From Antedon mediterranea (taxonomy: Eukaryota > Animalia > Echinodermata): a stretch of DNA of 64,000 nucleotides. The stretch covers positions 35,089,648-35,153,647 of the forward strand of contig NC_092673.1 in assembly GCF_964355755.1 (NCBI RefSeq). Reading direction: 5' to 3'. Positions within the stretch are counted from its first letter, which is position 1. The number at the start of each line of letters is the position of its first letter. Shown one piece after another: positions 11,713 to 40,716 of the stretch. The notes under the pieces were generated by a model. That model saw nothing but the letters and a program-made list of their open reading frames with translations, was not told the origin of the DNA and made no database searches. Position numbers and translations under genes: made by a program.

Positions 11713-12801
11713 AACAACATGGCATCTACCAAAGGTATGATATACAGTATGTAATGACCAACAAATAACTCTTAACATCATGGCATCTACCAAAGGTATG
11801 ATATACAGTATGTAATGACCAACAAATAACTCTTAACAACATGGCATCTACCAAAGGTATGATATACAGTATGTAATGACCAAACAAATAACTCCTAACA
11901 ACATGGCATCTACCAAAGGTATGATATACAGTATGTAGTGACCAAACAAATAACTCTTAACAACATGGCATCTACCAAAGGTATGATATACAGTATGTAA
12001 TGACCAACAAATAACTCTTAACAACATGGCATCTACCAAAGGTATGATATACAGTATGTACTGACCAAACAAATAACTCTTAACAACATGGCATCTACCA
12101 AAGGTATGATATACAGTATGTAATGACCAAACAAATAACTCTTAACAACATGGCATCTACCAAAGGTATGATATACAGTATGTAATGACCAAACAAATAA
12201 CTCTTAACAACATGGCATCTACCAAAGGTATGATATACAGTATGTAATGACCAACAAATAACTCTTAACAACATGGCATCTACCAAAGGTATGATATACA
12301 GTATGTAGTGACCAAACAAATAACTCTTAACAACATGGCATCTACCAAAGGTATGATATACAGTATGTAATGACCAAACAAATAACTCTTAACAACATGG
12401 CATCTACCAAAGGTATGATATACAGTATGTAATGACCAACAAATAACTCTTAACAACATGGCATCTACCAAAGGTATGATATACAGTATGTAATGACCAA
12501 CAAATAACTCTTAACAACATGGCATCTACCAAAGGTATGATATACAGTATGTAATGACCAAACAAATAACTCTTAACAACATGGCATCTACCAAAGGTAT
12601 GATATACAGTATGTACAGTAATGACCAAACAAATAACTCTTAACATCTACAGTAAAACAACATGGCATCTACCAAAGGTATGATATACCGTACAGTATGT
12701 AATGACCAACAAATAACTCTTAACATCTACAGTAAAACAACATGGCATCTACCAAAGGTATGATATACCGTACAGTATGTAATGACCAAACAAATAACTC
12801 T
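11713..12801 (+). repeat. 61-62 bp minisatellite, 17 copies, each containing ATG GCA TCT ACC AAA G|GTATGA
   Basis: ATG at 11719, 11780, 11841, 11903, 11965, 12026, 12088, 12150, 12212, 12273, 12335, 12397, 12458, 12519, 12581, 12662, 12742; last two units are longer (~80 bp). Confidence 0.97.
11719..11734 (+). CDS. NLR gene: putative first coding micro-exon (MASTK, phase-1 donor); exon probably starts at 11655
   Basis: Acceptor ttttcttcacag ends at 11654; aacaacATGG start context; AAAG|gtatga donor; splices in frame to 15471 giving MASTKEISVEEFNELL. Confidence 0.6.
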
Positions 12802-13841
12802 TTAGTTTTAACAAAACATAGAATTATGTATACTTTACTACAGTAGTATTCTGTAGTTTATATTTGATATATAGCTGCCTTTGTATGTTTACTGTTCTCA
12901 TTAAACTACTGGCTTTAGTTTTTACCTACAACATCTATTAATTTCATAAACATATTTAAAATTAGTTTTTTAGAATAAATACCAGTATAAAGTTTGTTAT
13001 TAATAAATAATGTTGTTGTTTGATAATAATTTAATTATTTTTACTAACGTAAACCATAAGCAGTTTTAGAATTTTGGACCACTTTTTAAAAGACAGGCAA
13101 TTACTATTAATTACAGTACTAGGTTAATCAATCATACTGCAAATGTTTTTTTTTAAATACCAAAATAGATACGTTTTTTTGGATCTAACAGTGTCCCCTT
13201 AATAGGGGTGTCCCCTGAATAGGAATACCATTATTAAGGGGTCACTAGCAAAAACCCTAAATTGTTCCCTTATTACAGGTTTTCGCTGGAAAAACAAAAA
13301 ACAAATACACCAAGATGAACAATAATTGATTATTAACGTTTCACCAATAAAAACTTTCATGTTTTATCATAATAATATTAATTTTTAAAATTCAAAATGA
13401 TAGAAATGAATATAATTATTCGATCTTCTTTGTTGTTTTTTGTGACAAAAAAAATATTGAACTTCAGTCTCCACAAGTTCAGTTTATTTTGTTGTAAATA
13501 TTGAAAAGGACTAAATACATAATTTGAACGAATACACAAAAACAACATTACAATTTTTTTTAAATGTAATAAAATAGTTTTTATGAATTTTAGTTTCATC
13601 TGGGATAACATTATAAAATTTGGTGCCACTTATGTTATTTTGGTTTGTGGATATAGGTAATTTTATGTTTAATTACGAAATGGAACGAGTTTGTGTCAAT
13701 CTGAAGTAATCTTATTTGACAATAAATTATTTTCTTATACCAGTCAAATTCATTCAATTCAATTTGAAAAACAAATTGTAATCAAAGGATAGTTTAAGAA
13801 AGCTAAGCTGCTGAGTCAGGATATTGCTCACAATTGAGATT

Positions 13842-15435
13842 CATGTACTATATTGCAGTACTATATTCCATGTACTATATTGCATGTACTATATTGCGTG
13901 TACTATATTGCAGTACTATATTGCATGTACTATATTGCATGTATTATATTGCATGTACTATATTGCATGTACTATATTGCATGTACTATATTGCATGTAC
14001 TATATTGCATGTACTATATTGCATGTACTATATTGCGTGTACTATATTGCGTGTACTATATTGCGTGTACTATATTCCGTGTACTATATTGCGTGTACTA
14101 TATTGCAGTACTATATTGCGTGTACTATGTTGCGTGTACTATATTGCGTGTACTATATTGCGTGTACTATATTCCGTGTACTATATCGCGTGTACTATAT
14201 TGCGTGTACTATATTGCAGTACTATATTGCATGTACTATGTTGCATGTACTAAATTGCATGTACTATATTGCGTGTACTATATTGCGTGTACTATATTGC
14301 ATGTACTATGTTGCATGTACTAAATTGCATGTACTATATTGCGTGTACTATATTGCGTGTACTATATTGCAGTACTATATTGCATGTACTATATTGCATG
14401 TATTATATTGCATGTACTATATTGCATGTACTATATTGCATGTACTATATTGCATGTACTATATTGCATGTACTATATTGCATGTACTATATTGCGTGTA
14501 CTATATTGCGTGTACTATATTGCGTGTACTATATTGCGTGTACTATATTCCGTGTACTATATTGCGTGTACTATATTGCAGTACTATATTGCGTGTACTA
14601 TGTTGCGTGTACTATATTGCGTGTACTATATTGCGTGTACTATATTCCGTGTACTATATCGCGTGTACTATATCGCGTGTACTATATTGCGTGTACTATA
14701 TTGCGTGTACTATGTTGCGTGTACTATGTTGCATGTACTATGTTGCATGTACTATATTGCATGTACTATATTGCATGTACATATCGCATGTACTATATCG
14801 CGTGTACTATATCGCGTGCACTATATTGCGTGTACTATATTGCGTGTACTATGTTGCATGTACTATGTTGCATGTACTATGTTGCATGTACTATATTGCA
14901 TGTACTATATTGCATTTACTATATTGCATTTACTATATTGCATGTACTATATTGCATGTACTATATTGCATGTACTATGTTGCATGTACTATATTGCGTG
15001 TACTATATTGCATGTACTATATCGCGTGCACTATGTTGCATGTACTATGTTGCATGTACTATATTGCGTGTACTATATTGCATGTACTATATTGCGTGTA
15101 CTATATTGCATGTACTATGTTGCATGTACTATGTTGCATGTACTATATTGCATGTACATATCGCATGTACTATATCGCGTGTACTATATCGCGTGCACTA
15201 TATCGCATGTACTATATTGCGTGTACTATATTGCATGTACTATGTTGCATGTACTATATTGCATGTACTATATTGCGTGTACTATATTGCATGTACTATG
15301 TTGCATGTACTATGTTGCATGTACTATATTGCATGTACTATATTGCATTTACTATATTGCATTTACTATATTGCATGTATTATATTGCATGTATTATATT
15401 GCATGTATTATACTGCATGTACCATATTGCGTGTT
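13842..15435. repeat. 14-bp minisatellite (gcatgtactatatt)n, ~110 copies
   Basis: Direct inspection; gcgt/gcag/ccgt variants; ends ~35 bp before the acceptor at 15470. Confidence 0.97.
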
Positions 15436-15470
15436 TATAAACTTATAGTGGTGTTGTCTTTACATTTTAG

Positions 15471-16007
15471 AAATCTCAGTGGAAGAATTTAATGAACTGT
15501 TGACTGATACAGCAAATTGGTATGACCGACTTGGATACCTGAAAGCGTTGAAAGTTTTATACAAAGACCATTTGAAAAAATCTAATGTAGCAGTGTCTAA
15601 TGCTAAAAGTGTCTGGTATCTACTACAGGATTTAACAGGCTCTGGAAGTTTAAGTCCATCAAATCTTACTATCATATACGACACAATAAAGATAACCAAG
15701 CAATTTGGCTTTAAGTCAAACGTTAAGAATCAATCTTCAGAAGATATTAAGAACCATGTAGTATCAATGTTGACATCTTACAGACAGAAGCTTTTTCGGT
15801 TGGGACTAGAACTTAAAAAGGATGAAGTATCAAAACTTGATTTTATTTTTAACAATCCATTATTAAAGAACTATCCAGATAGCTGGAGTTTGATTAAGGA
15901 TTTTGAAGACAGAAAGATCATTGATAGCGATTATGCAAGGATGGAGGATTTTCTTAATGTTTTAGAAAGAAATGGAATGACAAAGGCTAGGAAGATTTTT
16001 CTTGATG
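15471..16007 (+). CDS. NLR gene exon: tandem death-effector domain pair A (phase 1-1, 537 bp)
   Basis: ttttag| acceptor and G|gttagt donor; FNELL...LKVLYKDHL...LLQDL...LSPSNLTII, then SYRQKLFRLGLELKKDEV, resembling caspase-8/FLIP DED1+DED2. Confidence 0.8.
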
Positions 16008-17011: not shown

Positions 17012-17545
17012 AAATCTCAGTCAAAGATTTTAATCAACTGTTGATTGATACAGCAGAATGGTATGATCGACTTGGATACCTCACACCCTTGAAATTATTA
17101 TATAAAGACCATCTGACAAAATCTAACACAGGTACAGCTGGAGCTGAAAGTGTCAAGGATCTACTACAGGATTTAACAGCCTCTGGGAAATTGAGTTCAT
17201 CAACTCTTACTCTTCTGTATGACACAGTAAAAATAACCAAGCAATTTGACTTTAAGTCAACAGTTAAAAATCAACCTCCAGAAGATATTGAGAAACATGT
17301 GATATCAATGTTGACACCATTTAGACAAAAGGTTTATCAACTGGGATTAGAACTTAAAGAGAATGATGTATCCACACTAGATTCTTTATATAACATTCCA
17401 GTAAAGAAATATCAAGACAGCTGGAGTTTGATTGAAGACTTTGAAGAGAGAGAGATCATTGATAAGGATTTTAAAAAAATGGACAAATTTTTTACAATTT
17501 TGGAAATAAATGGAATGACAGGAGCAAAGAAGATATTCATTGACG
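17012..17545 (+). CDS. NLR gene exon: tandem DED pair B, duplicate of A (phase 1-1, 534 bp)
   Basis: tatag|aaatctcag acceptor and G|gttagt donor; colinear protein similarity to the 15471 exon (EISV..FN.LL.DTA.WYDRLGYL...KIF.DG). Confidence 0.8.
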
Positions 17546-17574
17546 GTTAGTTTATTTGTTTATTGAATATTAAT

Positions 17575-19460: not shown

Positions 19461-19680
19461 CCAACAAGAATATCATTAAAATGCCAATAATAGCAAAATC
19501 TTTTAGGTGGTGGGCATCATAGCTGTACAGTGAGTGCTGCTACGTGACATCCCCACGGCCCATTGTTCACAAGATACAAGATATATTTTTATTGTTCCTT
19601 TTATAAACATAAATCATACAAACTGTGACGTATTGACACTGATTATACTTGTACTGTTGTATTGATTTTTTTAAACTTAG

Positions 19681-19755
19681 ATGTGGAATCAAATGAAAGA
19701 GTAATGAAGCTTTCTTCTTTAAACTGGGAACAACAACTATCACCAACAGATAAAG
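19681..19755 (+). CDS. NLR gene linker micro-exon 1 (75 bp, phase 1-1): DVESNERVMKLSSLNWEQQLSPTDK
   Basis: aaacttag| and AAAG|gtataa; open in the required phase; paralogous to micro-exon 30926-30973. Confidence 0.7.
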
Positions 19756-20081: not shown

Positions 20082-20624
20082 ACAAAACTGAAGCAGATGT
20101 TGATGCCTTGTACCTTAAGGATAAGTTCCAAACTTTAAAATATGAACTTAGCAATATCTATAAGGGTCAGTTTTACAAGTGGTTGATATTCTGCCTGTGT
20201 GATAAGATATGTGTGGAAGATTTTACCTGTGATGATGGTACAGGAATTCTTTTATTGAATGAACTTCAACGAACTGGTAAAATCACACCTTATAAATTTA
20301 CTGTTCTGTTGGATATTGCAATTTTAACCGGTTTTAGAGAGGCTGAAGGTCTGGTAATTCAATATATGATAGATAACAATGTTGAACCTGTTGATGACGA
20401 AAGGCTGTCATTGTTTCGACAACAACTATTCCAGGTTTTAAGAGACTGTGGAAAAAATGAGTTGAAGAAAGTTAATCAAAATTATGATGTACTGAAAACA
20501 TTTAAATCGACAAATATTTGGGATTCTGTGCTAATACTAGAGAGAGAAAAACTCCTAAACACACCTGCACACATAGATAAGTTTGCACATCTTCTTGGAA
20601 AATCCACTGCACAGAGACTACTTG
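20082..20624 (+). CDS. NLR gene exon: tandem DED pair C (phase 1-1, 543 bp)
   Basis: tttttgcag| and G|gtatgt; FQTLKYELS...LIFCL...LLNELQRTGKITP...LSLFRQQLFQVL; homologous to the 62033 exon. Confidence 0.8.
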
Positions 20625-20773
20625 GTATGTATTATTTCTTATTACTCACTGTGCCAGTAAAGAAATAGCAAAAATATCAAAACAGCTAGAGTGACGAAAA
20701 ATGTTCTGGGCCATATTTCTTAAAATTTATAAAGATTTTTTTCACTTTCTTATTTTGTCATTGTCTCCTTTTC

Positions 20774-20946
20774 TGTAATGTATTATGTATAGCTATAGTA
20801 TTCTCAGATACTCCTAAATATTAGTATAGCGCCACCTATGTTGAAATAAAACTGATTTACAAAATGGACGATACACTGTTTATGTCATGAGGCATGAGGT
20901 CTATAAACAATCAATTGTAATCCACAAACATCTTCAGTATACAACA
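20774..20946 (+). repeat. 5' LTR (173 bp)
   Basis: Near identical to 30625-30787; tgta...caaca; contains aataaa. Confidence 0.92.
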
Positions 20947-20949
20947 AAT

Positions 20950-21735
20950 AGACACGTTTCGCGCACGCGAGGTCACCGTCAGTTTGACCTTTTAGTGGGT
21001 ATACAATGGTAAACAAACACAGCGAGAGGTATGTTAAAGCATGGGAGAACTGAGAGATGATCATCTTAAAAAGCAATTGTCAAAACTAGCCTTTTGATGA
21101 AATGGCATGGTAAGGATGTTATTTATTTTCTAAACTTATGTTTTATATTCACTGTAGAATTATTTGGGCATTTGGTTCGGAATCATCGACTTTATTTATG
21201 TATTGTCATTTTTGGTTTGACACATATATATTGCATTTAATACATGTTAACTGTTGATTTTATTTACAAATGTTGCGTAAATATATTAATTATTATCTTT
21301 CATTCTTCTTCATGCTCCTATTGCATCTTCCATGTATTATGTGATGTTCTTCGGCGCTTAAACAGACACCAAGCCTCCTACTAGGCCTAGTAGACGAATA
21401 ACCGCATCAGGCAACGCCACCGGGCGGGCGGAGAGACACGAGCACATCGTGGACGTACCTTTCCTTGAAAAATTTCCAAGATTTTGCGCCACTATCCTTC
21501 GGAGCCGACGCAAACCACTCAGCAAGTATTTGAAAATTAAAAACAGGAATATTATTCAGTGATTTTGTGTTCACGATTTATCCAACATATACAACATTTA
21601 TGATGCACCTTGCAACAAAAGCACTCGGCAGTCGCCATTTCGCTATGCTTCAACACGCACTAGGCGAGAGGTGTTCGGTTTGTTTACAAATCTATACCCA
21701 CTATTTCTGATTGGTCGCGAGCGCGAAACGTGTCT
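20950..21735. mobile_element. Non-autonomous TIR DNA transposon (786 bp) between the LTR and the PBS; AT TSD, possibly ISL2EU-type
   Basis: TIRs agacacgtttcgcgc / gcgcgaaacgtgtct with AT on both sides; removal puts the PBS 3 nt from the LTR end. Confidence 0.85.
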
Positions 21736-21788
21736 ATTGGCGACGAAGATTAAAATAAGGTAACGTTATAGAACAATTATAACAAAAA

Positions 21789-24700
21789 ATGCCTACAATA
21801 GGAAGCATAGAAGCCTACGATAACAATTCGGAAGATTGGACCGCATATGCGGAAAGGCTAGAATCCTATGTTGACGCTAATGGTATAGCGGATGATAAAC
21901 GGGTAGCAACACTACTGACAGTGATAGGACCCAAAACATATGGCCTGTTAAAAGACCTATGCACACCAGACATACCAAAAACCAAAACGTTTAAAGAGCT
22001 ATGCGATTTACTAAACATGCATTACTCACCCAAGCCTTTAGTTATAGCGGAGAGGTTCCGATTTTACAAACGAAATCAGAAACCAGGAGAGTCAATAAAG
22101 GACTTTTTCTTGCTGAACTTAGGCATCTGACTAAACACTGTGATTTCGGTGACAAGCTAAGCGAATCCATCAGGGATAAATTAGTTGTAGGGTTGCAGTC
22201 AACAGCCATACAAAAACGCCTCCTAACAGAAAGCAACTTAACACTTACAAAAGCAACCGAGTTAGCCTTAGGAATGGAATCTGCTCAAAAAGACGCCACA
22301 GAAATAAGTGGTAAACCAATCGCCAGCACTGATTACGTCGCACGCAAAACTTACAAAGCACAGCACACTAAGCCTAAGTCAATATGCCACCGATGCGATA
22401 GCAACACGCACCGATCTGACAAATGCAAATTTATCGACACGATATGCAATTTCTGTAAGGGCAAAGGTCACATCGAAAAAGCTTGCTTCAAAAAGAAGAA
22501 AAGTCAAGCGGGTTCAAAGGCGAAACCTGCATACAAAGGTACGAACTGTCGAGGGAGAGTCGGATGATAACGTTGAATTAAAGGGACTCGATCAAATTAC
22601 AGTGGCAATTGACAATATTGAATCTGATACGACTCCAATTTGGATCCAACCATACATAATCGGAGTGAAAGTAAATATGGAGCTAGACACTGGTGCTACT
22701 TACTCAATTATGAACCACAATGATTTTCGCAAGTATTTCCCGAACATGAGGTTAGATACGGTTCTAGAAAAATTCAAAACATACTCCGGCGAACCAATTA
22801 CATGCATTGGTGCTTGTAATGCTCACGTGAGTTACAATGGACAAACGGCGGATAGCAGATTGTTTATTGTAGAAAATGGTGGACCTCCATTATTTGGAAG
22901 AGCGTGGTTGAACAAGATTAAGCTGCCATGGCATGAAATCTTTAATGTAAATACAAACAGCCAAGCTCATATAAAAGTTACTCAGCTGATAGAAACATAT
23001 GCTGAACTCTTTTCAGAAAGAGTGGGTCTACTGAAAGGACAAAAAGCAAACCTTCACATGGAAGAGAACGCTACACCAAAATTCTGCAAAAGCAGGGAAT
23101 TAGTACCTTACGCACTGCGTCCAGCAGTAGACAAGGAACTCGACAGACTCGAGAAAGAAGGCATTATCACACAAATCAAATTCAGCGAATGGGCTACACC
23201 TGTAGTTCCCATTGTAAAACCCGATAAGTCTATTAGATTATGTGGTGACTACAAGGTCACTGTCAACCCGGCAATAAAACCTGACAAACACCCAATGCCA
23301 AAAATTGAGGACATATTTGCGACACTAGCTGGAGGAGAGAAATTCTCAAAGTTAGACCTAAAAAACGCATACTTACAGTACACTTGGAAATGAGTGAGGA
23401 AGCAAAACGAATACTCACCATTAACACACAAAAAGGGCTATACCAGGTAAATAGACTACCCTACGGTATAACCCCAGCGACCGGCATATGGCAGCGGATT
23501 ATGGAGCAAGTACTCCAAGGTATCCCAGGAGTTGCCTGCATACTAGATGATATGATTATAACTGGTCAAAATGACGACGTTCATTTGGAGCGCCTAAAAC
23601 AAGTGTTAGAAAGACTAAGGGAAAATGGTCTAATTCTGAATAAGAACAAATGTCAATTTCTGAAAACAAAGGTAACCTTCTTAGGTCATGTGATAGACAA
23701 ACAAGGTCTTCATAAGTCGTTAGACAAGATTGACGCGGTAGTAAATGCCCCACCACCCACAGACGTATCAACGCTACGATCGTTTATTGGTTTAATCAAT
23801 TATTACCATCGTTTCTCGTTTCTTACCCAACTTGTCATCTATTCTCTACCCATTACATCAGCTACTACAGAAAGAAAAAAAATGGAAATGGTCTAGCGAA
23901 TGTGAGGAAGCATTTGTTAAAGTAAAAAACATGATAGCGGAAGAGTGTGTACTCGCGCACTACGATCCAAAGCTACCTGTGAGATTAGCAACTGACGCAT
24001 CTCCATACGGTCTTGGCGCCGTATTATCACACGTCGTAAATGGTGAAGAACGCCCAATAGCGTTTGCTTCGAGAAGCCTTACTGTAGCAGAAAAGAATTA
24101 TTCGCAAATAGACAAAGAAGCGCTAGGTATCGTTTATGGAGTAAAGAAATTCACAGCATACCTGTTAGGGAGAAAATTCACATTGTTAACCGATAACCAA
24201 CCACTCACAAGACTGTTTAGCCCAACGAAAGCGATTCCAGCTACGGCAGCAGCCAGGTTAACGCGACAAGCAATTTTTCTTACGGGATTTGACTATGAAA
24301 TCGTCTACCGTCCAAGCGCAGATAACATGAACGCTGACGCATTGTCGAGACTACCACTACACATGCAAAGTGAAAAGTCAAACAAACCTGACGACATAGA
24401 GTTAGTTTACACGGATTGCTTTGAAGCACTGCCTGTCACGTTTAAACAAATTAAGGAACATACCAGACGTGATCCAATATTATCTAGGGTACTAGAGTAC
24501 ACGAAAAACGGTTGGCCCAGCCAACGAGACGACGAACTTGAAGCATTTTACCGTAGAAAGGACGAATTAAATCTAATCGATGAATGTTTATTATGGGGGA
24601 ACCGAATAATTATTCCTCCCAAGCTACGCAAAGAAGTAAGCGACGAACTCCACCAGGGACATCTCGGGGTAGTAAAAATGAAATCTATCGCGAGAAGCTA

Positions 24701-25730
24701 CTGTTGGTGGCCCAGAATGGACCACGATATTGAGACATTAGCGAAAGCATGTCCAGGTTGCAAACTTAACATGAAGGAGCCACCAAAAGCACCATTACAC
24801 CCGTGGGAGTGGCCTGAAAACGTATATGACCGCATCCATATCGATTACGCAGGTCCTATCGACGGCATTATGTATTTAGTAGTTGTAGACGCGCACTCCA
24901 AATGGCCAGAAGTATTAGCGACTAGAGATACCTCTTCGAGTAAAACCATTACCATGCTGAGAAGTCTATTCGCACAATACGGCCTATGCAAGATACTTGT
25001 GTCGGACAACGGACCGCAATTTAAGTCAAGTGAGTTTGAAATGTTCTTGAAAAGCAATGGTATCACTCACATTACTTCTGCACCTTATCATCCTGCGACT
25101 AATGGTCTCGCAGAGCGCATAGTCCAAACATTTAAAAATGCCTTGAAAATGGCAAAACTGGACAAAGGAAGTAAACAGCTAAAGTTAGACAATTTCTTAT
25201 TACACTACAGGAATTCACTACATGCTACAACCGGTGTAAGTCCAGCACAGTTATTCCTAAATAGAAATTTGAGAACAAGACTTGACCAAATTAAACCTGA
25301 TCTAAAGCGGAAAGTTTTCGAGAATCAAAACAAGCAAAGAGTAAACCCAGGAAAACAACGCGAATTCAAAATTGGACAAAAAGTGTTAGCTAGAGATTAC
25401 AGAAATGAGGATAAGTGGGTAACAGCTGAAATTATAGCAGTAAATGGCCCACTGTCATACGAAGTGAAAACACAACAAGGAGGACTGTGGAATAGACATG
25501 TCGAACAATTGCGCGAAACGCTATTGAAAACTACAGAAATCACCCCACTGACATTGACACCACAGTACATACCGGAAGCGACACCAACACCAACAAAGGA
25601 AACACCACCTTCAATCGCAAACAATCAACAAAGCGAAGAAGCAGTAAATAAAGAAATCATGAACGCTAAAACACCAAGACGCTCCAAGAGAGTGGTCAAA
25701 AGCCCTAAAAGGCTTATAGCTGAAATATAA
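21789..25730 (+). pseudogene. Gypsy gag-pol, frameshifted (~22108, ~22545, ~23385, ~23820)
   Basis: Zinc knuckles CHRC...H....C and CNFCKGKGHIEKAC; protease LDTGA; RT ILDD; RNase H DASPYGLGAVL; integrase H..H...CPGC and HIDYAGP/SDNGPQF/NGLAER, split over five ORFs. Confidence 0.93.
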
Positions 25731-26007
25731 TGAACTCATTGTCTTCCAATAAAATACACAAGACTTTTGAACTGAACATTGATTTTTAATTCATATATAA
25801 ATCTCAATTATTCTCTTTCACCTAATTGTACAACAATATATGTAACAAACTATGCGACCGAGAAGGTAAGACGTACACATACGGAGCTCCGCCACAAATA
25901 TTTTATACTTTGCCAACACCAATTACGCCTGGTCATTCTCTTGGATTTCATAAAGTAGTAAGTTATCTTACCTTTAATCACATCATTAACAGTATTTAAT
26001 CATTAAA

Positions 26008-26793: not shown

Positions 26794-27149
26794 TCCTAAT
26801 GACGCAATCAGAATGTAACTTGAATAGCTATTCAAGTATTTATCGCACATTGACACGTAGGCCTATTTTATATAATCGTTTATTCTACCTTTAGAAGGCC
26901 TAGTAGACGTGTGCATTGCGTTTTTTATGTACATATACGAGAACCATTATGTTATGTTGGACCATCATGGACCTGATTATTTGGCGGAGCAAAGAAGCAA
27001 AGAAATTGAATATTTATTTATAATACTTACTTTGTAATGAACTTGCATATATGTATTCATATTTTTATTAATTATGTATGTATATTTATTTATTTATGTT
27101 TTATTTATTTGTTATTATTTATGTTTGTTTTATCATATCTTCCTGATCC

Positions 27150-30100
27150 CCTTCTCCATTCTTTCTTTATAAATCCTGTAACTGAACATGAAGTGATGAT
27201 AATTATAAATGATCTTGATCCAAAGAAAGGAGGTGGCGATGATAGAGTTACACCATACGTTATTAAATTGATTTCTCCATTCATTATTAATCACCTTACG
27301 TTCTGTATTAATTCATCTTTTTCTTCAGGTAGTTTTCCCAATTATTTAAAGTTAGCAAAAGTTATTCCAATTTTCAAGAAAGGTAGACAAGATATACTTT
27401 CAAATTACAGACCCATTTCACTACTTAGTACCTTTTCCAAAATCATTGAAAAATTAATGTACTCCCGTCTCTATGAGTTCCTGGATTGCAATAACGTACT
27501 CTTTGCTCATCAATATGGTTTTCGTAAATCTCATTCCACTTCACATGCAATCCTTGATCTCATAAATAATGTAACAAACTCCTTTGAAAAAAGACAATTT
27601 TTGTTATCTGTCTTTGTCGACTTATCCAAGGCCTTCGATATTATAGATCACCGTATACTTATTAATAAACTTAACAATTATGGAATCAGGGGTATTACCT
27701 TAAACTGGTTTCGTAGTTACTTAAGTACTGTATGAGGAAGCAATATGTCTCGTTTGGTAATTGTATATCACCAGAGGAGGAGATGACATGTGGGGTGCCA
27801 CAAGGGTCGGTTCTTGGCCCTCTCCTTTTTTTAATTTACGTAAATGACTTATCCAGAGTCAGTGACACCCTCCATGTCATCTCCTTTGCTGATGACACTA
27901 CACTATTTTTTTCTCATTCAGATTTAAAAGTTTTATTTTCTATAGTTAATAATGAATTGTCAAAATATAATGACTGGTTCATCTCAAATAAACTCCTTAT
28001 AAACTCCATGAAAACCAATTACATTCTTTTTCATACACAACGTCAATCGTTAGACCTTAATGATTACAATATATTTATTAATGGAGATAACATTAAACAA
28101 ACGTCAGAGACTATGTTCCTTGGTATTTTAATCCAGGAAAACTTGAGATGGACCAGTCATCAGAATCATATTGCAAATAAAATTTCTAAAACAATTGCGA
28201 TTATAAATAATCTTAAGCACACTTTTCCCCGACGTATCCTTCTTTCATTATATAATTCTTTAATTTTACCTCATCTTTATTATTGTAACATTATTTGGGC
28301 TGCTGACTATCCATCACATCTCGATAAACTTAATAAGCTGATTAAGCGTGCTATTAGAAATATTACTTGTACGTCTCGCATTACTCCATCTGAACCTTTA
28401 TTTTATGAACTTAAAGTGGAGCTCCACCCAGAAAATTACTATTTTTCATACATTTCAACTATTATTTAAAAATATCATCCCTTATACTTCATATTTTTTT
28501 GAATTTTTTTTCAATGAGTACGATTTTCTTGAAAATCACGCCTTTTTGCGTTTTGGGGGGATACCTTGTAATTTCCTATTCTTTTACATGCAAAAGGGGG
28601 GTATATTTGAATAATCCTAAAAAATTCATTTCTTCACCAAAAAAAAAATGTAAAATGTATATTTATGTAATTTTTCCAGATCTTTCTATTTCTGGTATTT
28701 TTATCACGTATACATTGCGCAATTTTGCGTAAATAGACACTTTCCCCCGTTCGGGTCCAATTGGGTTTTTTATTTTGCTAGGGAGTACGATCACGTGACA
28801 TTTTCACAATCACACTACTGCAGCTGGCGATCTGTTATTTTGTCGCGATGTTATTTTTGACGGGCGAAAAGTATATTAAAACATTCTGAATGTGACCCTA
28901 TTATGTTTCACAGTGTAATAATGTGATTATGAGACTATTACTAAAATGTCAAATTTAACGAGATTTGAGAAAGATGTGGCTATATATTCAATAAAGCTAG
29001 GCCTAGGCCTACTAGAGTGTAGGTATGTACCGATGCTGCTTAGTGGCTTGGCCTCTAGCTAGGCTAGGCTGACAGCAGTGAAGTTTGTTTTGCTGTCACC
29101 CGACCTTGGCCTACCCATGGGCCATGATAGGGTGCCTGAATAGTTGCTTTTCAGTCAGGTCTAAGCTTGCACATCGCTTTACTATTCTTTACTACTCTTG
29201 TTCTGTATAGGATTTTGTGTTTCACAATTCTTAATATGCGAGAAAACCCAGGAACGATAAATGGGGCGAAACGACCATGCCTATGAATACATAGGCCTCT
29301 AGACAAAAATTCAAGGCTAGCTAGGCTGAGCAGACGGCTTAGCTAGGCCTAGCCCTAGCTTAAAGTTAAAAGCAATCTTGTTGTACAGTGAAAATCATGA
29401 GGTTACATGTAAATTATACTGACATTCTTATCGGAAATATTACTTAGGCCTAAACAAATCGTATTAATTGTGTGTATAAAATTTATTCCCCATTTTTCGA
29501 CACATAATTTACCAAAGGGAAGAAATTTCCACAATGCGTTGACCAGCGACTAAAACGCGTCAGTCGCTAAGTGTAACGCGTTTCGCGACGTATTGTAAAC
29601 TAATAACCCCTAAGTTACTGAAAAACTGTAATTTGTTAAAAAACACTATTTTCTGACCGATTTTTTAGAAATGAGTTTTTGGAAAATATTTCCGTATTTT
29701 TCCTGTTTTTTTTTATGTAATCACTTTCAATTAAACATACTTAAACATAATATAAGCTGAGAAAGTCTGAGTGTAGCTCCACTTTAAGTTACTGAAGTTA
29801 GGTGATATACATAAATTGCAAAGTGCCTCTTTTGTCTTTCAATATTTTTCTAACAATCTTCCTTCTCCCATGATGAATTTATTTAACACTGCTGATTTCA
29901 ACCATGGTCATAATTTAAGAAGTACTGTTCATAAGTTTCAGTTAACTATTCCTTTTGTAAGATTAACTATCTTCCCACTTTATTTATGTTTCTGGCCCTT
30001 TTATTTGGAATCAATTAGATACTAGTATTGTTAACTCTTCCTCTCTCCCAACTTTTCATAAAAAACTTAAAAGTAATTTGTTATCATTGTACTCAAACTA
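27150..30100 (+). pseudogene. LINE ORF2 reverse transcriptase; endonuclease missing, frameshifted at ~27733, split by a DNA transposon
   Basis: NYRPISLL, QYGFR, DLSKAFD, GVPQGSVLGPLLFLIYVND, FADDT; the frame PLFYELK|LLKLGDIHKLQ is restored after removing 28415-29787. Confidence 0.9.
28415..29783. mobile_element. Non-autonomous DNA transposon with TTAA TSD and AG...CT termini (Kolobok-like), 1369 bp
   Basis: TTAA-agtggagctccacccaga ... tctgagtgtagctccact-TTAA. Confidence 0.88.
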
Positions 30101-30624
30101 GACCTTCAAACTGTTTTTGTCACGACTTTTTTTTATTTTATTTAATAATTATATACAAATGTATTTTTTTCTTTTTGTTTATGGGTCTTGCGTGACAAGT
30201 ATTCTCTTCTTGCAAGATCCTCTATTAATGGTATTTTTTGTATTTTCTCATTATAAATTATCATTCTTTTTTATTGTATTGTTATACCATTGATAGAAAC
30301 TAATAAATGTTGAATTATTATTATTATTATTAATGGATGAACACTAAACTGTTCACTATCAATTATCATTATTAATGGACCTTAAGATATATTCACTTTA
30401 CAGATTCATAATTTTAAATATGTTTGTATGTCTAAATAGGAACAAAGTCAAATAGCATACAATTATTAATTAATGAATGTTCTTTTGTTTATATCGTATG
30501 ATAAAACTTAAAATAATAAAAAAAATATAAAACATAGAAAAAAGATTCTTACGGATAACTTTAACTCATATATTGTTGACACACCCAAATGTTTAACCCA
30601 CCTTTAAATTATTTCTGGGAGAAT

Positions 30625-30787
30625 TGTAAGTATTATATACTATGTATTCTCAGATACTCCTAAATATTAGTATAGCGCCACCTATGTTGAAATAAAACTG
30701 ATTTACAAAATGGACGATACACTGTGTTTATGTCATGAGGTCTATAAACAATCAATTGTAATCCACAAACATCTTCAGTATACAACA
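30625..30787 (+). repeat. 3' LTR (163 bp)
   Basis: Matches the 5' LTR with a few indels; followed by the TTTTC TSD. Confidence 0.92.
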
Positions 30788-30925: not shown

Positions 30926-30973
30926 TTGCAGAATCTACTGAAAGAATAATGAAGCTATCACCAATAGATAAAG
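30926..30973 (+). CDS. NLR gene linker micro-exon 2 (48 bp, phase 1-1): VAESTERIMKLSPIDK
   Basis: tatttag| (alternative in-phase cag at 30931) and AAAG|gtattt; similar to micro-exon 19681. Confidence 0.7.
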
Positions 30974-31312: not shown

Positions 31313-34300
31313 TTATCAAGACGTTCTTGAAAGAACACAAAAAACAATCATATCAAGATATGCATCTACTGGGAACAGCAGTTTTTAATGAAGAACACAA
31401 AGTTAACATTGCTGACGTATTCACAGATCTCAAGTTACTTCAATCTACAAAACAAAAACAGGTTGACCAAGCAACAAGACGGCAAGATGCTAAACCAACA
31501 AATTTAGTACATGTGTTGAAGATGATAAAATATAGAAGTTCATGTAAAGTTCTAATAACAGGTAAAGGAGGGATGGGAAAGACAACTCTTCTTAGACACA
31601 TTACTTATAACTGGGCTACTAATAATGATGATACATTTGCTGACAAAGTATTGTTTCTGTTAAATATCAGAGACATAGAGCCAGGAAAGACAATCATAGA
31701 TACTATTGTTGATGAAATTGACCTTGAAATATTTGCTAACCATATGAAAAAGATATCCAATGAGGAACCTAAGGAATTAATAAAAACGTTCATGATAGAA
31801 AAGGGGAATGAAATAGTTATACTATTAGATGGATTAGATGAGTTAAAGCAAGATGCTAAAAAACCATTACAATTATTGAAATTTAAATCTGACTATAAAA
31901 ATACCACAATAATAACATCACGACCTGAAAATATTACAACATTTGTTGAAAACTGTGATGTAGGTATTGAAGTTAATGGATTTAGTGAAGAAAGTATGAA
32001 GCTTTATATTCAGAAATATTTTACAGAAAAACCTAAATTAGGAAAAGTGTTAATCATAAAATTAAATCTTATTTCACACACGAATTCTGATTCAGAGGAT
32101 TCAAAAGATTTTGATCAAGAAATTTCAGATTCAAAAGATTCAGATTCTGAAAATTCTGATTCAGAAGATTCAAATTCAAAATATTCCGATCCAGAAATTT
32201 CAGATTTAAAAGATTCAGATTCTGAGAACAAACACACTGATCCATTTAGAAATATAGATATCATTGAACTGTGTTCATCTCCTTTATTATTACTTCAGAT
32301 TTGTAGCATTTGGGAAGAATCAGAAAAGCTTCCCAATGATTTGTCAGATCTTTTCAAAGAACTAATTTGTTGCACTTTAAATCAATATTTATCCAAAACA
32401 AATAGTGAGGGGAAGAAATCTACAATTGCACATTTTGAACAAATTCGAGGTGATTACAAAACTGCTATCCTAGCGTTAGGCCAATGTATTTATGAACGAC
32501 TAAAAACAAATGAACTGATAATTGACAAGTCTCAGTTCACAAATATGGTAAAGGATGAGGATAAATCAATAGTGGACTTGGCACTAAAAATTGGATTTGT
32601 TTACAAAAAGCCACCTCTTAATAAAAGAGATAAAAAAGAGATCTTCTCTCCCCCACACAAGCTAGTTTCGGAGGCATTAGCAGGGTTTTACCTTTCTGAT
32701 AAGTGTCATTCAGATAATTTGAAGGAGGAGGAGTGTGAAATGATAATATTTAATAAATATCTACATATGACAATTATATTCACAATAGGATTCTTAGGTG
32801 ATGATGCTGGTAGATTAATGAAACATTTGATGAAAGTGAAAGCTTCAAACTTGTATTCACTAGCAAAGTATTTCAGATATGTAAAGAAAGAACATGAATA
32901 TTCTGTAATAGAGCAATTAGAAGCAAAAATATCTAGTGATGAAGTACTTACAGAAACATGTTTAGAAATGTCTGAATCATTTAGATGTGCTCTAGATTAT
33001 ATTAACCCTTTGAGTGAGCAAATAGCAACATCACAAATGCAATTGGTAAAACTTATGAGCAGATGTTATGGTTTTTTGAATGAACAGTGGAATTCAGTAA
33101 TTATGGAGAAAAGACCCACTACATCAACTACAGAATTTTGTGCTATGGTAGTTCATTTCTTAATATTCATGTATACACCAATAAGTGATGATGAAGAAGT
33201 ATTTGAATTCGAATCGTTTGTGAAAGACAATGAGATTGGTACTATTGCAACTATGATGGACAAATTTCAATTTCAATATGGCTTTAAAAACATTTCATTT
33301 GATAAATCACAGAGTCCTAATTTCTTGATACATTGTTTGAAATATTCACCCAACCTGAAAAATATCTATTTTAAACCTGAGAGTTTAACCATTATTACAT
33401 TAAACCACGTTCTTGAAAATATCTTTCCACTTGATCTAAAGCTTCATATTGAAAAGGATGATCTAAGTAATATTGATGCTGTTTCACTTTCTAAGTTGGG
33501 GAGTCTAGTTGAGAAGTTTACATTTAGTAACTGTAACTTATCAGTTGATCACCTAAATGTTCTTGTAAATTTCTGTTATGAATGTGATAGGATATTGACA
33601 TGGAAGAAGTTGGATTTAAGTCGAATTAACCTATGTTCAATTGAAGGATCAAAATTAGCTTGTTTATTAAAATTCTCTCCACAACTAGAACATCTTGATA
33701 TGAGTGAGTGTAATCTCTCAGGTAGTATTATAAAAGATTTATTGAATGAATGTGATAAAAACAATGTGATATTAAAGCGAGGTATGGTTGATGTAACGAA
33801 AAACAATCTTTCAGATATTGATGTTGATACACTATATAAGTTGGTGGATTCAGATTGTACGCATTATTTAATGTTTAAATTTTGTGATCATAGCCTGTCA
33901 GTTCATCACCTGAAAAGTCTTATAGATGTATGTTGTGAACATGGTAGGATATTGATATGGGAAGAGTTGAGTTTAAGTAGGATTAACTTAGCTTTAATTG
34001 AAGGATCAAAATTAGCTTGCTTATTAAAATTCTCTCCACAATTACAAAATCTTGATATGAGAAACTGCCATATTTCAGGTAGTATTATAAAAGATTTATT
34101 GAATGAATGTGATAAAAACAATGTGGTATTGAAACCTGGCATGATTAATCTAGGGGAAAACAATTTGTCAGGTATTGATGGTGGTACACTATTTAGGTTG
34201 ATGGATTCAAATTGTATAAATTATTCTACTTTTGAATGGAAAGATTATAGCATGTCAGTTGATAACCTAAGAGGTCTTGCAGATGCCTGTTATGAACATG

Positions 34301-37300
34301 GTAGGATATTGACATGGGAACAGTTGAATTTAAGGTGGATTAACCTAGCTTCCATTAAAGTATCACAATTAGCTTGTTTATTAAAATTCTCTCCACAATT
34401 ACAAAATCTTGATATGAGAAATTGCCATATTTCAGGTAGTATTATAAAAGATTTATTGTATGAATGTGATAAAAACAATGTGGTATTGAAACCTAAATTG
34501 CTTGATCTTCAGGAAAACAATTTGTCAGGTATTGATGGTAGTACACTATTTAGGTTGATAGATTCAAATTGTATGAATTATTCTACTTTTAAATGGAAAG
34601 GTTATAGCATGTCAGTTGATAACCTAAGAGGTCTTGTAGATGCCTGTTATGAACATGATATGATATTGACATGGAAAGATTTGAGTTTATATGGGGTTAA
34701 CCTATGTTCAATTGAAGGATCAAAATTAGCTTGTTTATTAAAATTCTCTCCACAACTTGAACGTCTTGATATGAGAAACTGCCATCTTTCATGTAGTATT
34801 ATAAAAGATTTATTGAATGGATGTGATAAAAACAATGTGGTATTGAAACATGATATGCTTGATCTAGAGGGAAACAATCTTTCAGATATTGATGGTGTTA
34901 CACTATTTAGGTTGGTAGATTCAAATTGTATGAATTATTCTACTTTTGAATGGAAAGATTATAGCATGTCAGTTGATAACCTAAGAGGTCTTGTAGATGC
35001 CTGTTATGAACATGATATGATATTGACATGGAAAGATTTGAGTTTATATGGGGTTAACCTATGTTCAATTGAAGGATCAAAATTAGCTTGTTTAATCAAA
35101 TTCTCTCCACAACTTGAACGTCTTAATATGAGAAACTGCCATATTTCAGGTAGTATTATAAAAGATTTATTGAATGAATGTGATAAAAACAATGTGGTAT
35201 TGAAACCTGGCATGATTAATCTAGGGGAAAACAATTTGTCAGGTATTGATGGTGGTACACTATTTAGGTTGATGGATTCAAATTGTATAAATTATTCTAC
35301 TTTTGAATGGAAAGATTATAGCATGTCAGTTGATAACCTAAGAGGTCTTGCAGATGCCTGTTATGAACATGGTAGGATATTGACATGGGAACAGTTGAAT
35401 TTAAGGTGGATTAACCTAGCTTCCATTAAAGTATCACAATTAGCTTGTTTATTAAAATTCTCTCCACAATTACAAAATCTTGATATGAGAAATTGCCATA
35501 TTTCAGGTAGTATTATAAAAGATTTATTGTATGAATGTGATAAAAACAATGTGGTATTGAAACCTAAATTGCTTGATCTTCAGGAAAACAATTTGTCAGG
35601 TATTGATGGTAGTACACTATTTAGGTTGATAGATTCAAATTGTATGAATTATTCTACTTTTAAATGGAAAGGTTATAGCATGTCAGTTGATAACCTAAGA
35701 GGTCTTGTAGATGCCTGTTATGAACATGATATGATATTGACATGGAAAGATTTGAGTTTATATGGGGTTAACCTATGTTCAATTGAAGGATCAAAATTAG
35801 CTTGTTTATTAAAATTCTCTCCACAACTTGAACGTCTTGATATGAGAAACTGCCATCTTTCATGTAGTATTATAAAAGATTTATTGAATGGATGTGATAA
35901 AAACAAAGTGGTATTGAAACATGATATGCTTGATCTAGAGGGAAACAATCTTTCAGATATTGATGGTGTTACACTATTTAGGTTGGTAGATTCAAATTGT
36001 ATGAATTATTCTACTTTTGAATGGAAAGATTATAGCATGTCAGTTGATAACCTAAGAGGTCTTGTAGATGCCTGTTATGAACATGATATGATATTGACAT
36101 GGAAATATTTGAGTTTATATGGGGTTAACCTATGTTCAATTGAAGGATCAAAATTAGCTTGTTTATTAAAATTCTCTCCACAACTAGAACATCTTGATAT
36201 GAGTGAGTGTAATCTCTCAGGTAGTATTATAAAAGATTTATTGAATGAATGTGATAAAAACAATGTGGTAGTGAAACGTGATATGCTTTATCTACGGGGA
36301 AACATTCTTTCAGATATTGATGGTGTTTCACTTGTTAGGTTGGTGAATTTTTTTTTTGCACAACATAATGGTGATGACGAGTTTTATGAACCACCTATTG
36401 GTTATGCTAACAGTGTTTATTTTCATGATTACAGTCTGTCAGTTAATAACATAAGAGGTATTATAGATGCTTGTTATGAACATGATTGGATATTGAAATG
36501 GACAAGTTTGAATTTAAGTGGGATTAACTTATCTTCAATAGAAGGATCAAATTTAGCTTGTTTATTAAAATTCTCTCCACAACTAAAACGTCTTGATATG
36601 AGGAATTGCCATATTTCAGGTAGTATTATAAAATATTTATTGAATGAATGTGATAAAAACAATGTTGTATTGAAACCTGGCATGCTTGATCTAGAGAAAA
36701 ACAATTTGTCAGATATTGATGGTGTTACACTATTTAAGTTATTAGATTCAAATTGTATGAATTATTCTACTTTTGAATGGAAAAATTATAGCATGTCAGT
36801 TGATAACCTAAGAGGTCTTGCAGATGCCTGTTATGAACACGATGAGATGTTGACATGGGAAAAGTTGAATTTAAGTGGGATTAACCTAGCTTCAATTGAA
36901 GGATCAAAATTAGCTTGTTTATTAGCTTGTTTATTAAAATTTTCCCCAAAACTTGAATGTCTTGATATGAGAAATTGTCATCTCTCAGGTAGTATTATAA
37001 ACGATTTATTGAATGAATGTGATAAAAACAATGTGTTATTGAAACCTGGCATGCTTGATCTAAAAGAAAACAATTTGTCAGGTATTGATGGTGGTACACT
37101 ATATATGTTGGTAGATTTAATTAATTGTATGAATTATTCTACTTTTGAATGGAAAGATTATAGCATGTCAGTTGAAAACCTAAGAGGTCTTGCAGATGCC
37201 TGTTATGAACATGATAGGATATTGACATGGCAACAGTTGGATTTAAGTGGGATTAACCTATCTTCAATAGAAGGATTAAAATTTGTTTGTTTATTGAAAT

Positions 37301-40300
37301 TCTCTCCACAACTACAACATCTTGATATGAGTAATTGCCATCTCTCAAGTACTATTATAAAAGATTTATTCAATGAATCTGATAAACACAATGTTGTATT
37401 GAAACCTGGCATGCTTGATCTAAATGGAAATAATCTTTCAGGTATTGATGGTAGTACACTATTTAGGTTGATGGATCTAATTTATATAAATTATTCCAAT
37501 TTTACATGGTGTGATTATAGCCTGTCAGTAGATACCCTTAGAGGTCATATAGATGCCTGTTATGAACATGGTAGAATATTGAATTGGAAGTGGTTGAATG
37601 TAAGTGGTACTAACCTGTCTTCAATTGAAGGATCAAAATTAGCTTGTTTATTGAAATTTTCTCCACAACTACAACATCTTGATATGAGAAATTCCCATAT
37701 CTCAGGTAGTATTATAAAAGAATTATTAAATGAATGTGATAAAAACAATGTGGTATTAAAACCTGGCATGCTTCATCTAAAAGGAAACAATCTGTCAGAT
37801 ATTGATGGTGATACACTTTTTAGGTTGATGGATCTACTTTCTAAATGCAATATGGATCAATATGGTTATTGTTCCATAAGTTATTTGGCATGGACTGATT
37901 ATAACCTGTCAGTTGATAATCTAAGATGTTATTTGGACACCTTAGATAAACATGGTCAAATATTGGATTTGTATATTTTGAATTTAAGTGGGATTAACTT
38001 GTCTTCAATTGAAACATCAAAACTGGCTTGTTTATTGAAATTGTCACCACAACTACAACAACTTGATTTGAGTGATTGCCTTCTCTCTGGTAGTATTATA
38101 AAAGATTTATTAAATGAATGTGATAAAAACCATGTGGTATTGAAATCTGGCATGCTTGATCTAAAGGGAAACAATCTTTTAGATATTGATGGTGTTACAC
38201 TATTTAGGTTGGTGGATCTAAATTGTATAAAGCATTCCACTTTTAAATGGGATGATTATATCCTTACTGTTGATGACTTAAGGGATTTTATTAATGCCTG
38301 TTGTGAACATGGAAACATTTTAACATGGAAAAAGTTGAGTTTAAGTGGAATTAACCTAGCTTCAATTGAAGGATCAAAATTGGCTTGTTTATTAAAATTC
38401 TCTCCAAAACTTAAAACTCTTAATATGAGTAATTGCCATCTCTCAGGTAGTATTATAAAAGATTTATTGGATGAATGTGATAAAAACAATGTGGTATTGA
38501 AACCTGGCATGATTGATCTTAAAGGAAACAATCTTTCAGATAGTGATGGTGTTACACTGTTTAGGTGTATAAATCTGATTTATAATAACTTTTATTACAA
38601 GTATGTTTGCATTTTTATGGATTACTATATTTTTAATTGGAATGATTATAGCCTGTCTGTTGATAACCTGAAAAGTCTTGTAGATGCCTGTTATGAACAT
38701 GGTAGGATATTAACATGGGAAAGATTGAATTTAAGTGGGAATAACTTATCTTCAATTAAAGGATCAGAATTAGCTTTTTTATTAAAATTCTCTCCATATT
38801 TAAAACATCTTGGTTTGAGATATTGTCATCTCTCAGGTAGCATTATAAACGATTTATGGAATGAATGCGATAAAAACAATGTGGTATTGAAACCTGGCAT
38901 GTTTGATCTAAGAGGAAATAATCTTTCTGAAATTGATGGTGTTAGACAATTTGGGTTGGTGAATTTAATTTATAACAAATACACTTTTGAATGGTGGTAT
39001 TACATGCTTTCAGTTGATAACCTGATAAGTCTTGTAAATGCCTTGGATGGTAGGATATTGACATGGACAAACTTAAATTTAAGTTTGATTAACTTATCTT
39101 CAATTAAAGGATTACATTTAGCTCTTTTATTAAAATGTTCTCCAGAACTAAAACACCTTGATATGAGTAATTGTCATCTCTCAGGTAGTATTATAAAAGA
39201 TTTATTGAATGAATGTGATAAAAACAATGTGTTATTGAAACCTGGTATGCTAAGGCTTGATCTAAAAGGAAATAATCTTTTAGATATTGATGGTATTTCA
39301 CTTTTTCGGTTGATGGATTTAAATTGTATGGATTGTTGTACTTTCAAATGGAAAGATTATAGCCTGTCATTAGATAACCTAAAAAGTCTTATAGACGCCT
39401 GTTATGAACCTGGTGGAATTTTGAAATGGGAAAGATTGGACTTAAGTGGGATTAACCTATCTTCAATTGATGTATCAACATTTGCTTATTTATTAAAATT
39501 CTCTCCAGATCTAGAACATCTTGATATGAGTAATTGTTGTCTCTCAGGTAGTATTATGAAAGATGTGTTAAATGAATGTCATAAAAGCAATGTGGTATTA
39601 AAACCTGGCATGTTTGATCTAATAGAAAACAATCTTTCAGATATTGATGGTGTTTCTCTATTAAGGTTGGTGAATCTAATTGATATGGATGATGACACTT
39701 TTGAATGGTATGATTATTATAACATGTCAGTTGATAATCTAGAAGGTTTAATAGATGCCTGTTATGAAGATGGTAGGATATTGAATTGGAACAGGTTGAG
39801 TTTAAATGGGATTAACCTAGGTTCAATTAAAGGATCAAAATTAGCTTTTTTATTGACACTCTCTCCAAACCTAGAATGTTTTAACATTAGACATTGCAAT
39901 CTTTCGGGTAGTATTATAAAAGATTTATTGACTGAATGTGATCAGAATAAAGTGGTATTGAAACCTGGCATGCTTGATCTACATGGAAACGATCTTTCAG
40001 ATATTGATGGCCTTTCACTTTTTAGGTTGGTGAATTGTATGAATTATGACACTTTTAAATGGTGTGATTATAGCCTGTCGGTTGATAACCTTGTGAATAT
40101 CTGTAAGGGGAATAATAGTAAGTTAACATGGAGCTATTTAGATTTAAGTGGACTTAACCTTGTAGGATCCACTTTAGCTGGTTTAATACCATTATTTCCA
40201 TTACTAGAACATCTCAGTTTGGAAAATTGCAATCTTTCAGGTGGTATGATAATGTCTGTATTGGATGAATGTGAAAGAAATGGAATAGTATTGAAAAAAG

Positions 40301-40716
40301 AAATGCTGAATCTGATGGGCAATGACCTTTCAGATATCACAGATGAAACATCAGTTGCTAAATTAGAATGGATCAGTACTAATCGGTTTTCTAATCTGAA
40401 CTCGGATTTAGATAATTTTGGAAATGAAAACTTAGACTTTGACAACTTAGAAAATGAAAACTCAGATTTAGACAACTTAGAAAATGAAAACTCTAATTTA
40501 GACAGTTTAAAAAACAAAAATTCAGACTTTGGCAACTTAGGAAATGCAAAATCAGACCCAGAAAACACTGATATCTCTGATGACCAAGACAATTCAGATC
40601 CAGGAATTGCAAACAAATCTAAAGTGGCTCTAATAATGTATTTTTTCAATTATTTTTTACTATTTATTTTGCTTATGTATATTTTCAATTTGTTATTTGG
40701 CCTACAATTTTTTTAG
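31313..40716 (+). CDS. NLR gene giant terminal exon (9.4 kb): NACHT NTPase, HD1/WHD/HD2, ~19 x 119-aa LRR super-repeats, acidic linker and hydrophobic tail
   Basis: ctaac branch motif and ttaacag| phase-1 acceptor; Walker A GKGGMGKTT (31561), Walker B ILLDGLDEL, sensor ITSRP, CSSPLLL, WHD PPHKLVSEALAG; LxxLxLxxNxL repeats; 3129-aa uninterrupted ORF. Confidence 0.95.
33490..40340 (+). repeat. Coding tandem repeat, 357-bp basic unit, with a near-identical 1071-bp (3-unit) duplication
   Basis: Antisense shadow ORFs at 34290/34647/35004/35361/35718/36075 are spaced exactly 357; ~34055-35094 is almost identical to ~35126-36165. Confidence 0.95.

Follow-up and report, generated by a model that had tools for sequence, protein, structure and literature searches.

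NLRs that join death effector domains (DEDs) to a NACHT domain are known from amphioxus, sea urchin and Nematostella, and adaptor-free triggering of caspases has been proposed for them (PMC2575513; PMC3879445). For amphioxus, adaptor-free signalling from DED-NLRs to caspases had already been put forward in 2008 (PMC2575513). In Chiridota, 24 of 53 NLRs carry one or more death domains or DEDs (PMC8913654), and the sea cucumber receptor AjDD-NLR has been reported to promote lytic death through interaction with the death-domain caspase AjDD-CASP (review PMC13673367). Here we describe an NLR gene of the crinoid Antedon mediterranea, found in a stretch of 64,000 nucleotides (nt) of RefSeq assembly GCF_964355755.1 (contig NC_092673.1, positions 35,089,648 to 35,153,647). 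This stretch is hereafter called the window; coordinates are positions within it, and the parts of the gene lie on its forward strand. Six DEDs, arranged as three caspase-8-like tandem modules, precede NACHT and about 78 leucine-rich repeats (LRRs) in the predicted protein. The reading frame is intact, and the gene is likely spliced as one transcript and likely to have been built by exon shuffling. It is best placed as a high-end member of a crinoid tandem-DED NLR expansion, and the family that it exposes matters more than the single gene.

Three tandem-DED modules in frame with NACHT and LRRs

Seven exons of 16, 537, 534, 75, 543, 48 and 9,404 nt, matching the lengths first proposed, join into a frame of 11,157 nt and 3,718 amino acids (aa) with one terminal stop only; all six introns are GT-AG and all junctions fall in phase 1. 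Modules 1, 2 and 3 are encoded by exon 2 (15471-16007; aa 6-184, phase 1-1), exon 3 (17012-17545; aa 185-362, phase 1-1) and exon 5 (20082-20624; aa 388-568). Exons 4 (19681-19755) and 6 (30926-30973) are linker micro-exons of 25 and 16 aa, which align with each other and are paralogous. Exon 7 (31313-40716) is a single 9.4-kb exon encoding NACHT, helical domains, LRRs, an acidic extension, a hydrophobic tail and the stop codon, and on its own it holds a frame open for more than 3,100 codons in DNA of 32% GC. Every DED and linker exon is of phase 1-1 and has a length that is a multiple of three, so exon skipping would alter the number of DEDs without a frameshift.

The identity of the modules was assessed by profile and by fold. 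The Pfam DED profile matched exon 2 twice (E 2e-8) and exon 3 likewise twice (E 1.9e-7), in each case just below the curated cut-off; exon 5 had no Pfam match, and a phmmer search of exon 5 alone against PDB returned chance matches only. When a profile was built from exons 2, 3 and 5 together with a fourth module at 62 kb, caspase-8 prodomains made up the top nine of 14 PDB matches, colinear over both DEDs, with a best E of 0.0011. The AlphaFold prediction for exon 5 (pLDDT 61, from a four-sequence alignment) matched tandem DEDs of caspase-8, cFLIP and vFLIP over its full length in the top nine rows (Z 8.9-10.9 over 149-168 residues, root-mean-square deviation 3.5-5.2), and single DEDs with Z up to 8.0. 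Another death fold was considered and rejected, as single death domain (DD), CARD and PYD structures reached Z of at most 6.2 compared with 8.9-10.9 for tandem DEDs. Since Z below about 13 can be common among helical folds, the weight rests on the agreement of profile and fold. A Foldseek search with the exon 5 model gave a TM score of about 0.6 with a non-significant E value, and an Atlas search with two modules of a homologue returned DED clusters at 0.85, which we treat as a lead only. Taken together, the six DEDs are confirmed as three caspase-8-like tandem modules.

A preliminary description of the locus, made by eye from the same DNA, had proposed seven GT-AG exons joining without a stop into about 3718 aa, with about six DEDs forming three caspase-8-like tandem modules in cis, a NACHT domain, about 75 LRR strands and a hydrophobic tail. 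The exon lengths, boundaries and frame were reproduced exactly. The DEDs are supported by Pfam in exons 2 and 3, by the caspase-8 profile matches and by the fold of exon 5; these searches favoured tandem DEDs, and together with the in-frame exons they support the arrangement in cis with NACHT and LRRs. NACHT (E 3.6e-18), about 78 LRRs and a tail of 30 residues were likewise recovered.

The modules differ in their relationships. Exon 2 is 92% identical to one module of A. mediterranea XP_071948965, and exon 3, at 64% aa identity to exon 2, was probably derived from it by duplication; modules 1 and 2 are separated by few residues, far fewer, by eye, than the DED1-DED2 linker. The module of exon 5 belongs to a second, distant lineage (identity to modules 1 and 2 of about 22%) and shares 53% identity with the module at the N-terminus of the NLR XP_071948490. 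The simplest history would be that exon 2 was duplicated to give exon 3, and that exon 5 came from another NLR lineage and was inserted between two copies of the linker micro-exon.

The exons probably belong to one gene, in view of recurring junctions, the grouping of the NACHT domain and the make-up of intron 5. Four of the six junctions recur in related RefSeq models of A. mediterranea: junctions 1/2 and 3/4 in XP_071954806, which has an exon 4-homologous linker at the matching junction, junction 2/3 in XP_071948965, and junction 6/7 as a short exon 6-like segment joined to the NACHT exon that distinguishes two XP_071954806 isoforms. The start of exon 5 coincides with the point where the sequence of XP_071948490 follows its five-residue start. 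A tree was built from 32 NACHT regions, leaving out relatives whose NACHT was too short or had no matched Walker A; in it, the gene groups with the two NLRs bearing exon 2/3-type modules (SH-aLRT 99) and lies far from XP_071948490; NACHT identity is 55% to exon 2/3-type NLRs versus 40% to the exon 5-type NLR. Intron 5 measures 10,301 bp, and only 282 bp once a young Ty3/gypsy-type long terminal repeat (LTR) retrotransposon is removed (20774-30787, on the gene strand, with nested insertions). The element has a 5-bp target duplication and TG...CA LTRs (20774-20946 and 30625-30787), whose alignment shows one mismatch and 14 gap columns.

Candidate caspase partners and competing explanations

Two homologue searches returned 15 crinoid proteins and two isoforms, each of these 17 bearing one or more modules, and a profile search against 1.84 billion representatives yielded 208 matches, of which the best 150 were listed; overall, 160 proteins were fetched. 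All 37 of these that were looked up by name come from A. mediterranea or Anneissia japonica. Among the 160 proteins, 38 carry NACHT, with one module in 24, two in 13 and five in one (the ten-DED A. japonica NLR XP_033103043), and two A. japonica NLRs of 3,112 and 3,309 aa hold about 16 and 19 of the same four-LRR units as found here. Uniqueness of the gene in its number of DEDs or in its length was therefore rejected, as a ten-DED NLR and NLRs of more than 3,000 aa are present in A. japonica RefSeq. The preliminary description of an unusual giant receptor holds as regards a multi-DED NLR, while its oddity is weakened by family members with ten DEDs and with 3,100-3,300 aa. Two of the A. japonica family NLRs have an OTU protease domain between tandem DED and NACHT, and two from A. 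mediterranea have strongly hydrophobic, membrane-like segments at that place.

Two of the 160 proteins are caspases that carry the family module, namely XP_033126911 of A. japonica (caspase-8-like) and XP_071950579 (one module). The former has four DEDs in two modules of different lineages; its module 2 shares 72-75% identity with modules of NACHT proteins, and 43% and 40% with exons 2 and 3, respectively. Closely related modules on a caspase and on NLRs make direct like-with-like recruitment plausible. The true caspase-8 orthologue of A. mediterranea may be among the 58 further matches or below the threshold. Our overall reading is that the gene encodes an adaptor-free death-signalling sensor to which tandem-DED caspases are recruited through a non-canonical contact, a reading to which we assign an even chance.

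A number of observations weigh against this reading. Caspases are only two of the 160 proteins, the one with the closest module is from another genus (Anneissia), and other module-bearing partners are equally available: Roc-COR, TRIM-like, TIR, GVIN-type GTPase, kinase, TPR-NTPase, OTU and ubiquitin-like domains are joined to it in further proteins (36 of the listed proteins were covered in one domain scan). None of the 38 NACHT-bearing relatives has three modules. Junctions 4/5 and 5/6 had no exact counterpart among the fetched proteins, and the RefSeq relatives are themselves predictions. The same-strand LTR in intron 5 carries AATAAA 220 nt past exon 5. No RNA dataset matched the NACHT stretch and no transcript was found for any junction; in four sequencing runs, introns were covered like exons and no predicted splice joint was among the 15 of 208 joints listed in one comparison, the other listing none, so these runs behave as DNA and are uninformative on expression.

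The adverse points extend to the FL motif. In human caspase-8 the filament grows through the FL motif of DED2, and the F122G/L123G change blocks filaments (PMC7864959; PMC7156525). We mapped the FL positions through alignment to caspase-8 and scored 215 family modules. At the DED1 position, which is packed inside the pair, a hydrophobic pair was found in 210 of the 215, including all three modules here. At the DED2 position it was found in only nine, and in none of the three crinoid caspase modules found; in the present gene it is kept in module 1 only, half lost in module 2 and lost in module 3, and in the closest relative, the module with 92% identity carries arginine in place of the second residue. 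The RxDL charge-triad pattern, a feature of caspase-8-type tandem DEDs, occurred in five of the 215 modules at any position. The rigid tandem pair is, as judged from these alignments, kept, with the known chain contact missing. The preliminary description had envisaged a DED filament and adaptor-free recruitment of a DED-caspase; recruitment remains plausible given caspases that share the module, and with DED2 FL mostly lost the adaptor-free idea is kept and the claim of a canonical caspase-8 filament dropped. That recruitment of tandem-DED caspases would proceed via a non-canonical interface is a proposition we hold with moderate confidence.

Three other explanations bear on these data. In the first, the NLR is real, but the main role of its tandem DEDs is to connect it with non-caspase members of the network (Roc-COR, TRIM, TIR, GVIN or other NLRs), to hold the receptor inactive, or to act as decoys for pathogen DED-binding proteins. 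The presence of the module on many classes of protein would be in keeping with this (122 of the 160 proteins are without NACHT and only two are caspases), as would the hypervariability of DED2 FL, which is expected of a conflict or partner-choice surface. However, the 72-75% identity between the caspase prodomain and NLR modules argues for exchange or shared constraint of just these two classes, and death-fold N-termini of NLRs are usually effectors. We regard this explanation as unlikely.

A second possibility is that the full protein is not made, either because the intron 5 retrotransposon ends most transcripts early or because there are two genes, leaving DED-only, cFLIP-short-like proteins and a separate or silent NACHT-LRR. 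The 10-kb insertion lies on the same strand and has the polyadenylation-like hexamer in its LTR; readthrough of the donors of exons 2, 3 and 5 (16008, 17546 and 20625) runs into a stop after no more than 1, 1 and 14 codons, and retention of these introns would thus yield proteins of two, four or six DEDs only. DED-only proteins of two to four modules do occur among the matches, and the donors score moderately, between the 85th and 98th percentile of GT sites. Nevertheless, the 9.4-kb exon has no stop in DNA of low GC, the NTPase motifs are intact, NACHT groups with exon 2/3-type NLRs, and between exons 3 and 5 there was no convincing alternative first exon, with one weak candidate. On balance, loss of the full protein is quite improbable.

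The mechanism first suggested for the gene, in which the three modules pre-form a piece of canonical caspase-8-type filament and template caspase-8 through the FL (type I) contact, is quite improbable, for although fold and profile match caspase-8 tandem DEDs best, the outermost module 1 keeps the hydrophobic pair at the FL position and caspase-8 could hypothetically offer its own FL motif to the DED1 pocket of the receptor, modules 2 and 3 are without the motif, the closest relative has arginine there, modules 1 and 2 are joined by far fewer residues (by eye) than the DED1-DED2 linker, and F122G/L123G blocks filaments of human caspase-8 (PMC7864959).

In the preferred reading, of an adaptor-free sensor, a ligand bound on the long LRR would activate NACHT, and tandem-DED caspases of crinoids would be drawn in by the clustered tandem-DED modules through like-with-like contacts, probably other than the FL-motif contact of caspase-8; nucleotide exchange, oligomerisation and proximity activation of the caspase would follow established NLR biology. 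The two unrelated module types likely let one receptor engage two partner classes. A wider proposal, which we consider rather unlikely as a whole, is that of a crinoid death-signalling network wired by a mobile tandem-DED exon swapped among NLRs, caspases and other defence proteins. Modules of mixed lineage would be stacked, with their number set by exon skipping, and would form an FL-independent DED polymer with matching caspases, the variable surface encoding partner choice, and this copy may be membrane-anchored by its new tail.

NACHT domain, repeats, tail and flanking DNA

The NACHT NTPase core lies at 31549-32028 (Pfam PF05729, E 3.6e-18, 66 bits versus a cut-off of 26.7). Its motifs are intact, comprising Walker A (aa 668), Walker B (aa 752) and sensor 1 (aa 783), with helical-domain and winged-helix motifs further on (aa 904 and aa 1029). 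A Ser/Asp-rich insertion that arose from a 15-nt tandem repeat (32098-32222) is absent in the paralogue XP_071948965.

The LRR solenoid spans 33337-40386 (aa 1260-3609). Eighteen full four-LRR units of about 119 aa at 33664-40197 account for 72 of the approximately 78 repeats, the other six or so being flanking repeats counted by eye; Pfam LRR_1 also matches the C-terminal repeats. A structural model of three units gave 12 strand-helix repeats (pLDDT 84), with ribonuclease inhibitor as the best match (E 6.9e-7). Three units have been copied in a very recent 1,071-nt duplication (34055-36165; two mismatches in 1,040 nt), which may be real or an assembly artefact; contig depth gives no verdict, since at this place it sums many near-identical LRR units of other copies. 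The size of the protein is not owed to this duplication, as 15 distinct units remain without it.

At 20 exposed strand positions, the proportion of nonsynonymous differences (pN) was 0.33 versus 0.16 elsewhere (permutation p 5e-5; 15 of the 18 units used). Relative to synonymous differences (pS), pN/pS at the exposed sites was 1.08 with their own synonymous sites as reference and 1.43 when all synonymous sites were used, the pairs of units being non-independent. This variable strand surface fits a ligand-binding face; positive selection was not demonstrated.

Beyond the last LRR, the C-terminal extension (40387-40713) consists of acidic 10-aa repeats followed by a hydrophobic tail of 30 residues (40624-40713; best 19-residue hydropathy 2.26), so that about 110 residues follow the last repeat here compared with eight or fewer in the closest paralogue. 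The DNA that encodes the tail is 55% T and ends where a repeated element starts, and equal hydrophobicity was found in 13 of 575 non-coding stop-ended segments of the window. In DNA contigs from three runs of one sample the tail was covered at identities of at least 98%. It appears to be private to this gene copy, since a hydrophobic C-terminus was seen in none of the 28 NACHT-LRR relatives checked (several of these models appear cut short), which weakens this part of the preliminary description. That it is a real membrane anchor seems somewhat less likely than not, the alternative being neutral read-through.

At the 5' end, exon 1 (11655-11734; coding part 11719-11734, 16 nt) is the first coding exon, and the AG acceptor at 11654 points to a non-coding exon lying upstream. 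Its five-residue start also precedes a tandem-DED exon in XP_071954806 and XP_071948490. The coding part lies in a tandem array of 62-bp and then 80-bp units (11713-12802), which holds 17 copies of its start codon and splice donor; splicing from a later copy would place short upstream reading frames before the start and could reduce translation. Much of intron 1 is taken up by a 14-bp satellite of 114 copies (13842-15434) that yields long spurious reading frames. Within the retrotransposon of intron 5, the gypsy gag-pol region is spread across several frames, and the nested insertions comprise a 790-bp element with 24-nt inverted ends (20947-21738) and a LINE-like piece with an ORF1-like frame and reverse transcriptase in broken frames (25990-28466).

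Two blocks of the window (733-2343 and 40709-42660) are approximately 82-91% similar and contain 55-bp minisatellites. The second starts at the NLR stop codon, and the pair represents a repeated element or, alternatively, the 3' flank of a paralogue lying upstream. Further downstream, at 62018-62552 (+), lies another tandem-DED exon, the fourth in the window, which is of the exon 5 type at 41% identity. It has an in-frame ATG of its own and probably opens the coding sequence of a neighbouring member of the family; apart from it, no further family exon was found elsewhere in the 64-kb window.

Comparison with known systems

With caspase-8, cFLIP, vFLIP and the filament of FADD:caspase-8, the modules described here have in common the fold and the packing position of the rigid pair. 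In contrast to caspase-8 and cFLIP, DED2 FL and RxDL are mostly absent, and the modules are concatenated on a sensor instead of on a protease or inhibitor. The crinoid modules bear on whether the FL motif, essential in human caspase-8, is dispensable for DED polymers, and their covalent stacking on whether the activation threshold is lowered. In NLRC4 and NLRP1-type receptors, death folds brought together by a NACHT oligomer can engage a caspase with no adaptor in between; these receptors, NOD2 with its tandem CARDs and NLRC5 with its long LRR have one or two CARD or PYD domains and far fewer LRRs than found here.

Among invertebrates, the DED-NACHT(-LRR) NLRs of amphioxus, sea urchin, Nematostella and holothurians resemble the present gene in using the DED as N-terminal connector, and a direct DED-caspase link without an ASC-like hub has been proposed for them. 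The accessible text on them mentions no caspase-8-type tandem modules, arrays of these or 70 or more LRRs, all of which are present here. AjDD-NLR and AjDD-CASP are likewise an echinoderm NLR and caspase that share a death-fold class, a death domain there and a tandem DED here. Other accounts treat DED-bearing invertebrate receptors and domain shuffling and, in their accessible portions, do not mention tandem-DED NLR arrays (PMC11508797; PMC8662601; PMC8998645; PMC8195603; bioRxiv 10.1101/2025.07.21.665930). Literature searches, mostly outside subscription journals, returned no paper on a crinoid tandem-DED NLR family, although figures and supplementary domain tables could list multi-DED NLRs, and the family is apparently undescribed so far. 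Pfam misses or under-scores many of its modules, so such genes may have entered surveys as NLRs lacking an effector domain. For the question of ASC-free signalling by the expanded NLR families of invertebrates, crinoid NLRs and caspases that share a closely related module offer a concrete pair.

The closest relatives are crinoid proteins annotated as 'uncharacterized protein' (XP_071948965 and XP_071954806 from A. mediterranea; XP_033103043, LOC117115710 and LOC117103017 from A. japonica). They share with the present gene one or more tandem-DED modules, NACHT and the same four-LRR unit, and reach up to five modules (XP_033103043) and about 19 LRR units. The gene described here differs in that it mixes exon 2/3-type with exon 5-type modules, has three modules, a number seen in none of the 38 NACHT-bearing relatives, and ends in a hydrophobic C-terminus, seen in none of 28.

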